A stretch of DNA of 64,000 nucleotides. It comes from Escherichia phage VpaE1_ev108. The stretch lies in the sequence record LR597658; one strand, 5' to 3'. The position numbers and the translations under genes are program-made. Position 1 is the stretch's first letter; each line of letters begins with the position of its first letter. Below are positions 4,122 to 4,204 of the stretch, piece after piece. The notes beneath the pieces were generated by a model. That model had not been told where the DNA came from, made no database searches, and saw nothing but the letters and a program-made list of their open reading frames with translations.

Positions 4122-4204
4122 ATGGGACGATGTTAAGACTCTAAGGCATGAGCAACGGCTTCCAACACCGTTTCAAAGGGGTTCAACTCCTCCGTCCCAT
4201 GCCA
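4122..4204 (+). tRNA. atypical tRNA-Trp-like (anticodon CCA) with about 7 extra nt between acceptor and D-arm
   Basis: perfect 7-bp acceptor atgggac/gtcccat, anticodon loop ttccaac, T-arm agggg-ttcaact-cctcc, CCA encoded; extra gatgtta segment after the acceptor 5' strand. Confidence 0.5.

Follow-up and report, generated by a model that had tools for sequence, protein, structure and literature searches.

The window analysed here is a 64,000-nucleotide (nt) stretch of Escherichia phage VpaE1_ev108 (LR597658), a Felix O1-like myovirus of the genus Felixounavirus (Ounavirinae). ARAGORN finds 26 tRNA genes in the window, all of them on the + strand in the interval 2263-7237; 19 amino acids are represented, and tryptophan alone is left without a canonical tRNA. 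In a 238-nt gap of this array, flanked by the genes for tRNA-Arg(TCT) and tRNA-Ser(TGA), lies a non-canonical tRNA-Trp(CCA)-like gene (4122-4204, +) of 83 nt including its encoded CCA, to which we refer below as the element. The 1.1 kb surrounding it matches 278 phage records at 80-99% identity. A first-pass annotation, made from the letters of the window, had taken the element for either a tRNA with an unusual insertion or a decaying pseudogene.

The element has the acceptor stem of seven base pairs (bp), the anticodon loop and the encoded CCA that the first-pass annotation had described. The 5' acceptor strand ATGGGAC (4122-4128, positions 1-7) pairs with GTCCCAT (4194-4200), which is followed by the discriminator G (4201) and CCA (4202-4204). 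Between the acceptor and the D stem lies the connector GATGTTAAGA (4129-4138), with 10 nt where 2 are usual; the surplus had been put at about 7 nt, in agreement with an excess of 6-8 nt depending on the method of counting. The D stem consists of three pairs only (C11-G24, U12-A23, and C13-G22), formed by CTC (4139-4141) and GAG (4150-4152), with A4138 opposite C4153 (A10.C25 by homology). The GAGC at 4150-4153 corresponds to positions 22-25 by homology with E. coli tRNA-Trp. The D loop TAAGGCAT (4142-4149) contains GG at 4145-4146. The anticodon stem pairs AACGG (4154-4158, positions 26-30 by homology) with CCGTT (4168-4172), giving five Watson-Crick pairs from 26:44 to 30:40, of which A4154-T4172 (26:44 by homology) extends the far end of the helix. 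The loop region (4159-4167) reads C TTCCAAC A: the loop TTCCAAC (4160-4166), holding U33 (4161), the CCA anticodon (4162-4164) and A37 (4165), is closed by a C4159.A4167 mismatch. The closing position 31.39 is C.A or C.C in every orthologue. The loop can be read as 7 nt closed by the mismatch or as 9 nt, and the stem has five Watson-Crick pairs only when 26:44 is counted. A short variable loop of class I type, TCAAA (4173-4177), is invariant and leads into the T arm (4178-4192), where GGGG (4178-4181) pairs with CCTC (4189-4192) around the loop TTCAACT (4182-4188), whose TTC.A stands at 4182-4186. This arm had been called normal; it is not fully so, having a stem of only four Watson-Crick or GU pairs.

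The fold is preserved by covariation. Twelve distinct orthologues were aligned independently with MAFFT, and the pairing partners were slid by 1-3 columns as a control. In this set the cloverleaf is paired in 99.6% of alignment cells and 8 of its 19 pairs are changed on both sides, whereas the slid partners pair in 31-51% of cells and give 0 compensatory pairs. RNAalifold, run unguided, recovers the same four helices. A larger set, aligned with a covariance model, adds metagenomic relatives, Felix O1 and Yersinia phage P778; its 58 loci (17 distinct sequences) span Felixounavirus, Mooglevirus, Suspvirus, Pectobacterium and Yersinia phages, and metagenomes. Among the 17 distinct sequences 99.1% of cells are paired and 9 of 19 pairs are compensatory, at least one of them in each of the four helices. 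Since the MAFFT and the model-based alignments agree, the covariation is unlikely to be an artefact of alignment. Compensatory changes extend over at least three named genera, two unplaced Ounavirinae-like lineages and the metagenomic relatives, and of the two readings first offered it is the tRNA with an unusual insertion that they bear out.

The anticodon stem gives examples of such changes; it occurs as AACGG/CCGTT, GTAAG/CTTAC, GTAGG/CCTAC, and ACTTG/CAAGT; four of its five pairs change on both sides and 100% of cells pair. The D stem, found as CTC/GAG, CAC/GTG, and CGT/ACG, likewise pairs in 100% of cells, and its middle pair is U-A in nine, A-U in seven and G-C in one of the distinct sequences. 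In the acceptor of the Pectobacterium and Yersinia phages, 1:72 is G-C instead of A-U and 2:71 is C-G instead of U-A; Mijalis and Sf13 have U-A in place of G-C as the first T-stem pair. The invariant positions are U33, C34C35A36, A37, the GG of the D loop, the TTC.A of the T loop, G73, and CCA.

The alignments also bear on how the helices are stacked. A fifth T-stem pair would be A.C in all sequences. If C4193, which precedes the 3' acceptor strand, pairs instead with G4129, the first nucleotide of the connector, the acceptor becomes 8 bp long. This pair can form in 17 of 17 distinct sequences and is predicted by RNAalifold; both columns are invariant, hence there is no covariation in favor of either arrangement. 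An acceptor/T branch of 8+4 would be likelier than one of 7+5. The layer counts are those of a normal tRNA (12 in the acceptor/T branch and 10 in the D/anticodon branch), and the dimensions of the L-shape would therefore be kept. An additional pairing, of ATG (4130-4132) in the connector with CAT (4147-4149) in the D loop, could make a pseudoknot with the D stem; it is possible in 98% of cells and in all but one sequence, and the changes there are one-sided only.

A 116-nt query centred on the element finds 235 phage records in INPHARED. These are Escherichia, Salmonella, Shigella, and Citrobacter phages (Felixounavirus, Mooglevirus, and Suspvirus) together with Pectobacterium phages, in which the match shrinks exactly to the element and the flanks cannot be aligned. 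About 25 IMG/VR contigs carry the element, and a pattern search gave 19 metagenome loci, all of Ounavirinae type. The covariance model R1 has a single match in the window, at 110 bits. A search of bacterial and archaeal contigs from GTDB, at one genome per species, gave 13 chance matches and no element, and a search of IMG/VR for distant copies with the 15-mer GGGACGATGTTAAGA returned mostly chance matches. In the copies examined with their flanks, the element is found just upstream of tRNA-Ser(TGA) or of its usual gap, and downstream of tRNA-Arg(TCT) where that gene is present. Deletion or degeneration in relatives had been envisaged, but carriers keep the gene intact; one metagenomic copy, L116, has two mismatches in the acceptor.

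The gap for tryptophan recurs in relatives. Felix O1, whose complete genome measures 86,155 bp, has 25 tRNAs, all of them in the array, and Yersinia phage P778 has 26 in its 6.1-kb tRNA region; in both, tryptophan alone is missing and the element is present. Erwinia phage phiEa21-4 (Kolesnikvirus, of the same subfamily) has a canonical tRNA-Trp between tRNA-Gly and tRNA-Thr. Its first 50 kb, which include the whole tRNA array, contain no copy of the element, the best R1 match there being the canonical tRNA-Trp itself at 38.8 bits. The element and a canonical tRNA-Trp are mutually exclusive in the genomes examined.

The element is also marked for tryptophan. The E. coli tryptophanyl-tRNA synthetase (TrpRS) recognizes the anticodon triplet and G73 as major, and A1:U72 and G5:C68 as minor, identity elements; its co-crystal shows binding to the anticodon loop and the acceptor arm, with no D-arm contacts mentioned (PMC12135181). 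The window copy has every TrpRS identity element known from E. coli. The anticodon C34C35A36 (4162-4164) is invariant in the 58 loci, and G73 (G4201) and G5:C68 are invariant as well; 1:72 is A-U in nine, G.U in five and G-C in three distinct sequences. The stretch GAGC-A-ACGGC-CUCCAAA-ACCG is nearly identical to the matching stretch of E. coli tRNA-Trp, a sequence that was verified in 5426 genomes. The host gene is single-copy in E. coli (median of 1 place per genome), so that a phage copy of tRNA-Trp is plausibly useful. CCA is encoded by the element as it is by 25 of the 26 canonical array tRNAs, and the A/T-rich leader of the element, with T at -1, is like those of the array tRNAs.

Comparison with E. 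coli trpT and with the canonical tRNA-Trp of phiEa21-4 (24577-24652 of that sequence, L101) shows GAGC-A26, most of the anticodon stem, G73, A1:U72, and G5:C68 to be shared. The 5-nt variable loop, the T-loop and the GG of the D loop are likewise those of canonical tRNA-Trp. The canonical anticodon loop CUCCAAA is that of most orthologues, whereas the window copy has UUCCAAC. The element differs in having a link of 10 nt, where the canonical genes have 2, from the acceptor stem to the D stem, a D stem of three pairs with A10.C25, an A at position 49 (A.C with 65) or an eighth acceptor pair, and a Watson-Crick pair at 26:44. The C31.A39 mismatch is common to the element and the phiEa21-4 tRNA-Trp, although the place in the array is not: the latter lies between Gly and Thr, the former between Arg-TCT and Ser-TGA. 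The phiEa21-4 gene has three Watson-Crick pairs in its anticodon stem, with U27.C43 and C31.A39 mismatched, and ends in TCA, not CCA. A weak anticodon stem seems to be a trait common to Ounavirinae tRNA-Trp genes.

The connector is the most conserved segment of the molecule, whereas the stems drift via compensatory changes. Its length is invariant in all orthologues (10 nt, or 9 if G4129 pairs with C4193), and its sequence is identical in 16 of the 17 distinct orthologues; PC79-13 has GACGTTAAGA, with one T-to-C change. In the MAFFT alignment the connector (GAUGUUAA) stands against U8-A15 (UAGUUCAA) of E. coli tRNA-Trp, and GTTAAGA resembles CTCTAAGG, which comes next. The resemblance suggests that the extra loop may have come from an old, short duplication within the 5' part of the D arm.

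In architecture the nearest precedent is the 'E-loop' tRNA1, an 8/4 tRNA encoded in acidobacterial polycistrons (Mukai et al., 2017, PMC5389517; review, PMC7609411). The acidobacterial E-loop tRNAs come from forest and peat soil metatranscriptomes, have U73 and a GCU anticodon, and are associated with toxin-antitoxin genes (PMC5389517). With tRNA1 the element shares an extra loop, probably the 8/4 branch, a location in a tRNA cluster and the failure of standard tools to find it; the likeness is one of described architecture. The element differs from the acidobacterial RNAs in its full set of tryptophan identity elements, its short variable loop, its occurrence in cultured enterobacterial phages and the specific gap that it fills. 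Other tRNAs are known that depart from the 7/5 rule. 8/4 tRNA-Ser and tRNA-His have been reported in phages, and these and selC* tRNA-Cys, which has a bulged 8/4 branch, would share with the element an acceptor branch of 12 layers that is not 7/5 and a place in phage tRNA clusters (PMC5389517). They differ in having no extra loop and another amino acid identity, and tRNA-Ser, the allo-tRNAs and selC* have long variable arms. A single bulged branch nucleotide, of the kind seen in the element copies of Pectobacterium phage Wc4-1 and of P778, has been proposed for minor cysteine/selenocysteine tRNAs of the selC* type (PMC5389517).

We favor the reading that 4122-4204 encodes a functional, structurally non-canonical tRNA-Trp(CCA), the twentieth-amino-acid member of the phage array, and judge from the comparative sequence evidence that this is probably correct. 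From transcription to decoding we infer the following course. The element would be transcribed together with the + strand array and matured in the manner of its neighbors, given its A/T-rich leader with T at -1 and its encoded CCA. The RNA would then adopt an L-shape of normal dimensions. Its acceptor/T branch would have 12 layers, most likely 8+4, and its D/anticodon branch 10, made up of the three D pairs, A10.C25, the five Watson-Crick pairs from 26:44 to 30:40, and C31.A39. G18G19 and the T-loop would make the elbow, and the insertion of 9-10 nt would protrude where the acceptor and D arms meet, making a fifth, 'extra' loop. Because host TrpRS reads just the anticodon and the acceptor end, it would charge the RNA via C34C35A36, G73, A1:U72, and G5:C68, and the charged RNA would decode UGG. 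The gene is probably descended from a canonical phage tRNA-Trp like that of phiEa21-4, in which a short segment of the 5' part of the D arm was duplicated. The C31.A39 mismatch and an upstream GGAGGTGGTCTGTATCTC-plus-hairpin block (described below), both shared with phiEa21-4, are consistent with common descent of the element and the canonical tRNA-Trp of that phage.

Several points weigh against a functional tRNA-Trp. Taken alone, the sequence has an unremarkable folding energy (z=-1.56), and the case rests for this reason on comparative evidence. The literature searched contains no expression, processing, aminoacylation or decoding data for the element, and the only E-loop tRNA tested earlier was not charged by E. 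coli GlyRS or ThrRS (PMC5389517). Several deviations from the canonical form occur together (the 10-nt connector, the 3-bp D stem with A10.C25, C31.A39, and A.C or 8/4), each of which could impair use by EF-Tu or the ribosome. In the Pectobacterium/Yersinia lineage (Wc4-1 and P778) the 3' acceptor strand has an extra bulged nucleotide, and L116, a low-complexity metagenomic contig, has its two acceptor-stem mismatches. Neither would be expected were aminoacylation the selected function in all lineages. Finally, an extra loop that hardly varies suggests a role specific to its sequence and beyond plain decoding.

Such a role is the basis of the best surviving alternative, a tRNA-like RNA that is not used in decoding. 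It could be a decoy or sponge for a tRNA-targeting defence nuclease, for TrpRS or for a modification enzyme, or a regulatory RNA with the extra loop as its functional site. A loop that is conserved above all else while the stems drift would suit such an RNA, as would an acceptor that is imperfect in Wc4-1, P778 and L116. The 8/4 and E-loop tRNAs of Acidobacteria, one of them uncharged, have been suggested to be regulatory or toxin-antitoxin associated (PMC5389517), and tRNA-cleaving defences are common, retron Eco2 for instance cutting the acceptor stems of tRNA-Trp (PMC12916289). A decoy, however, leaves unexplained why the element fills exactly the sole gap in the tRNA set and why it excludes a canonical tRNA-Trp. 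The element has moreover retained U33, A37, the anticodon, the elbow, the encoded CCA and helix lengths of 12 and 10 layers, and these are the needs of a ribosomal substrate. We consider a non-decoding RNA unlikely.

The conserved loop can also be accommodated within the favored tRNA-Trp. A five-loop tRNA might be charged by the TrpRS of E. coli or Salmonella and used by the ribosome, with the invariant loop adding a property absent from ordinary tRNA-Trp. The gain might be protection from a host defence that targets tRNAs or from tRNA decay induced by the phage, or else UGA read-through via the position-9/D-arm hinge. In this specific form the idea is a speculative one, and we give it a low probability.

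Read-through can be considered in its own right, as the function of a tryptophan-charged tRNA with altered decoding that reads UGA in addition to UGG, in the manner of the Hirsh-type or short-anticodon-stem opal suppressors, and that serves programmed read-through or interferes with host termination. UGA is read, also in E. coli, by variants of tRNA-Trp(CCA) that have A9C, G24A (Hirsh) or an anticodon stem of 4 bp, and variants 'unpinned at the bottom' occur in bacteria and are unstudied (PMC13092985). The element resembles these variants in its altered D-arm/position-9 region and in having one unpaired position in the anticodon stem: there are just four Watson-Crick pairs in 27-31:39-43, with C31.A39 or C.C throughout. 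The canonical tRNA-Trp of phiEa21-4 has C31.A39 likewise. The unpaired position of the element, however, is at the loop end (31.39), whereas UGA readers that have been studied well lack the pair at the top (27.43), and the 26:44 pair compensates by keeping the number of Watson-Crick pairs at five. Use of TGA as a stop codon shows no reduction: it ends 21 of 77 open reading frames (ORFs) in the window (27%), and of 114 ORFs in Felix O1 it ends 30. Directly behind TGA a further in-frame stop is no commoner (5 of 21) than behind TAA (9 of 51; Fisher test of TGA vs. TAA+TAG, p=0.51). UGA reading gains no support from stop-codon usage, and we hold it to be quite unlikely.

The decaying pseudogene proposed by the first-pass annotation, a tRNA-Trp disabled by its insertion and drifting neutrally, would explain why standard detectors reject the element and why it has several mismatches (A.C and C.A), and some array members in relatives are indeed annotated as pseudo-tRNAs. 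Such a gene would not be expected to show compensatory change at 9 of 19 pairs with 99% of cells paired, nor an insertion that is invariant instead of variable. It would also have to persist in 235 phage records over several genera, and to be the sole Trp-type tRNA of the window, of Felix O1 and of the P778 tRNA region. Between the window and P778 the identity of the element is 0.76, which ranks 9th of 26 among the array tRNAs (range 0.58-0.82). Judged by this comparison, the element diverges no faster than the 25 adjacent canonical tRNAs compared and is like a working neighbor, not like a pseudogene. In the distant relatives Wc4-1 and P778 the flanks are unalignable while the element aligns. 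A pseudogene is extremely unlikely. Hardly credible either is an ordinary tRNA-Trp whose canonical fold was overlooked, with GTT(A) at 4132-4135 as the D-stem strand, a connector of 2-3 nt and an oversized D loop: the GTT of Felixounavirus can pair with AGC (G-C, U.G, U-A) and MAFFT aligns GATGTTAA with UAGUUCAA of E. coli tRNA-Trp, but this strand pairs in just 63% of cells, its third pair is broken in 8 of the 17 distinct sequences and its fourth never forms, changes at 4151 are compensated at 4140 in the downstream CTC instead, and ARAGORN does not accept the fold either.

The gene is missed by the tools in general use. ARAGORN, which the first-pass annotation had suggested as a check, makes no call on the native element, and no Rfam model, that for tRNA included, has a match there even at E<=10. 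When any run of 6 nt that begins at one of element positions 9-14 is deleted in silico, ARAGORN calls a tRNA-Trp(cca); the extra loop alone thus accounts for the gene being missed. In the annotated relatives inspected there is no tRNA feature at the place of the element. Relatives annotated with tRNAscan-SE list the flanking tRNA-Arg and/or tRNA-Ser and none between. The blind spot in tRNAscan-SE (as judged from published annotations), ARAGORN and Rfam is systematic. In the literature searched we found no description of the element, and the Felix O1 genome paper lists 22 tRNAs, none of them for tryptophan (PMC3185647). In some relatives a 'hypothetical protein' is annotated over the element. 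A protein-coding reading was rejected, the overlapping ORFs being just 22-36 amino acids long and the substitutions following the pattern of RNA helices.

Felix O1 and its relatives are classic, heavily sequenced phages with uses in diagnostics and therapy, and at least 235 records contain the gene. These phages have been described as encoding tRNAs for 19 amino acids. The element very likely completes the set, and the array is then to be read as a full replacement set rather than a supplement for codon bias. The extra-loop architecture had earlier been reported solely from soil metatranscriptomes, without an assigned function. Its presence in a genetically tractable phage-host pair makes processing, charging, acceptance by EF-Tu and the ribosome, and the role of the loop directly testable, and the scaffold would be of interest to tRNA engineers. 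If the five-loop tRNA with an added property is real, a classic phage family has carried a new functional tRNA architecture unnoticed.

Several other features of the region were noted. Consensus scans give two weak promoter candidates (+) just upstream of the element, CTTTACA-N17-TAAGCT (4080-4109) and TTGAGA-N17-AATTAT (4090-4118). Promoter-like sites in the region are no commoner than chance; the pattern CTTTACA-N17-TAnnnT has only 2 sites in the 64 kb. ESh19 has TTGACA at the first hexamer. Farther upstream in the window (4026-4066, +) is a conserved GGAGGTGGTCTGTATCTC block with a hairpin behind it (CATGTT...AACATG). Ahead of the element in L116 the block recurs with a hairpin that covaries (CCTGA/TCAGG, CCAGA/TCTGG), and in phiEa21-4 it precedes the tRNA-Gly that lies directly before tRNA-Trp. 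The block and hairpin might act as a signal for processing or regulation.

The gap between tRNA-Ile and tRNA-Arg contains a tag frame (3749-3781, +) like that of a transfer-messenger RNA (tmRNA), GCAAACGAC...TGA, which encodes ANDNVFLAVA*, with a promoter-like TTGACA-17-TATAGT upstream (3671-3699). An identical frame is present in pinkbiff and Felix O1; that of phiEa21-4 reads ANDAQFLAVA* and has synonymous differences, a pattern suggestive of translation. ARAGORN makes no tmRNA call in this region, and the Rfam tmRNA matches are below threshold (29.2 and 15.9 bits). An ARAGORN-reported tmRNA gene is on record for the relative Moogle (PMC4319497), and the tag frame is probably a known family feature that most genome annotations leave out. 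In phiEa21-4 the tag frame is closely preceded by a tRNA-like piece of about 168 nt (L101, 23877-24044), running from GGGTGATTCTG to GGTTCGAATCCTTAATCACTCGCCA with an 8-bp terminal stem, whose 3' part R1 matches weakly (18 bits). It might be the tRNA-like part of a two-piece or otherwise unusual tmRNA.

HNH homing-endonuclease genes occupy varied sites in the arrays, at 25030-26395 and 27313-27726 in Felix O1 (L121) and at 1-260 in Sf16 (L027), and leave the element untouched. ARAGORN finds no tRNA-Arg(TCT) upstream of the element in Felix O1, where an HNH gene is annotated at 26003-26395. Within the 428-nt gap at 2994-3421 of the window, an isolated T-arm-like segment GGCGAAGGTTCGATTCCTTCACTCGGC (3165-3214, +) has a partial Rfam tRNA match of 22 bits over model positions 7-64. 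The segment overlaps a minus-strand ORF of 76 amino acids (3139-3369) that has no Pfam match, and could be the remains of a tRNA or a further tRNA-like element of irregular form. A long hairpin, GGGCTTCTAAGG...CTTAGAAGTTCTC (4468-4567, +), directly upstream of tRNA-Leu(TAG), gives a spurious match of 32.7 bits to a plant microRNA precursor. Immediately upstream of the tRNA array is an ORF of 471 amino acids (682-2097, +) with DUF2828 and DUF7788 domains, whose orthologues in Felix O1 and P778 are named 'RNA-binding protein' in RefSeq. This protein may be functionally linked to the cluster of tRNAs, tmRNA and odd tRNA that follows it.

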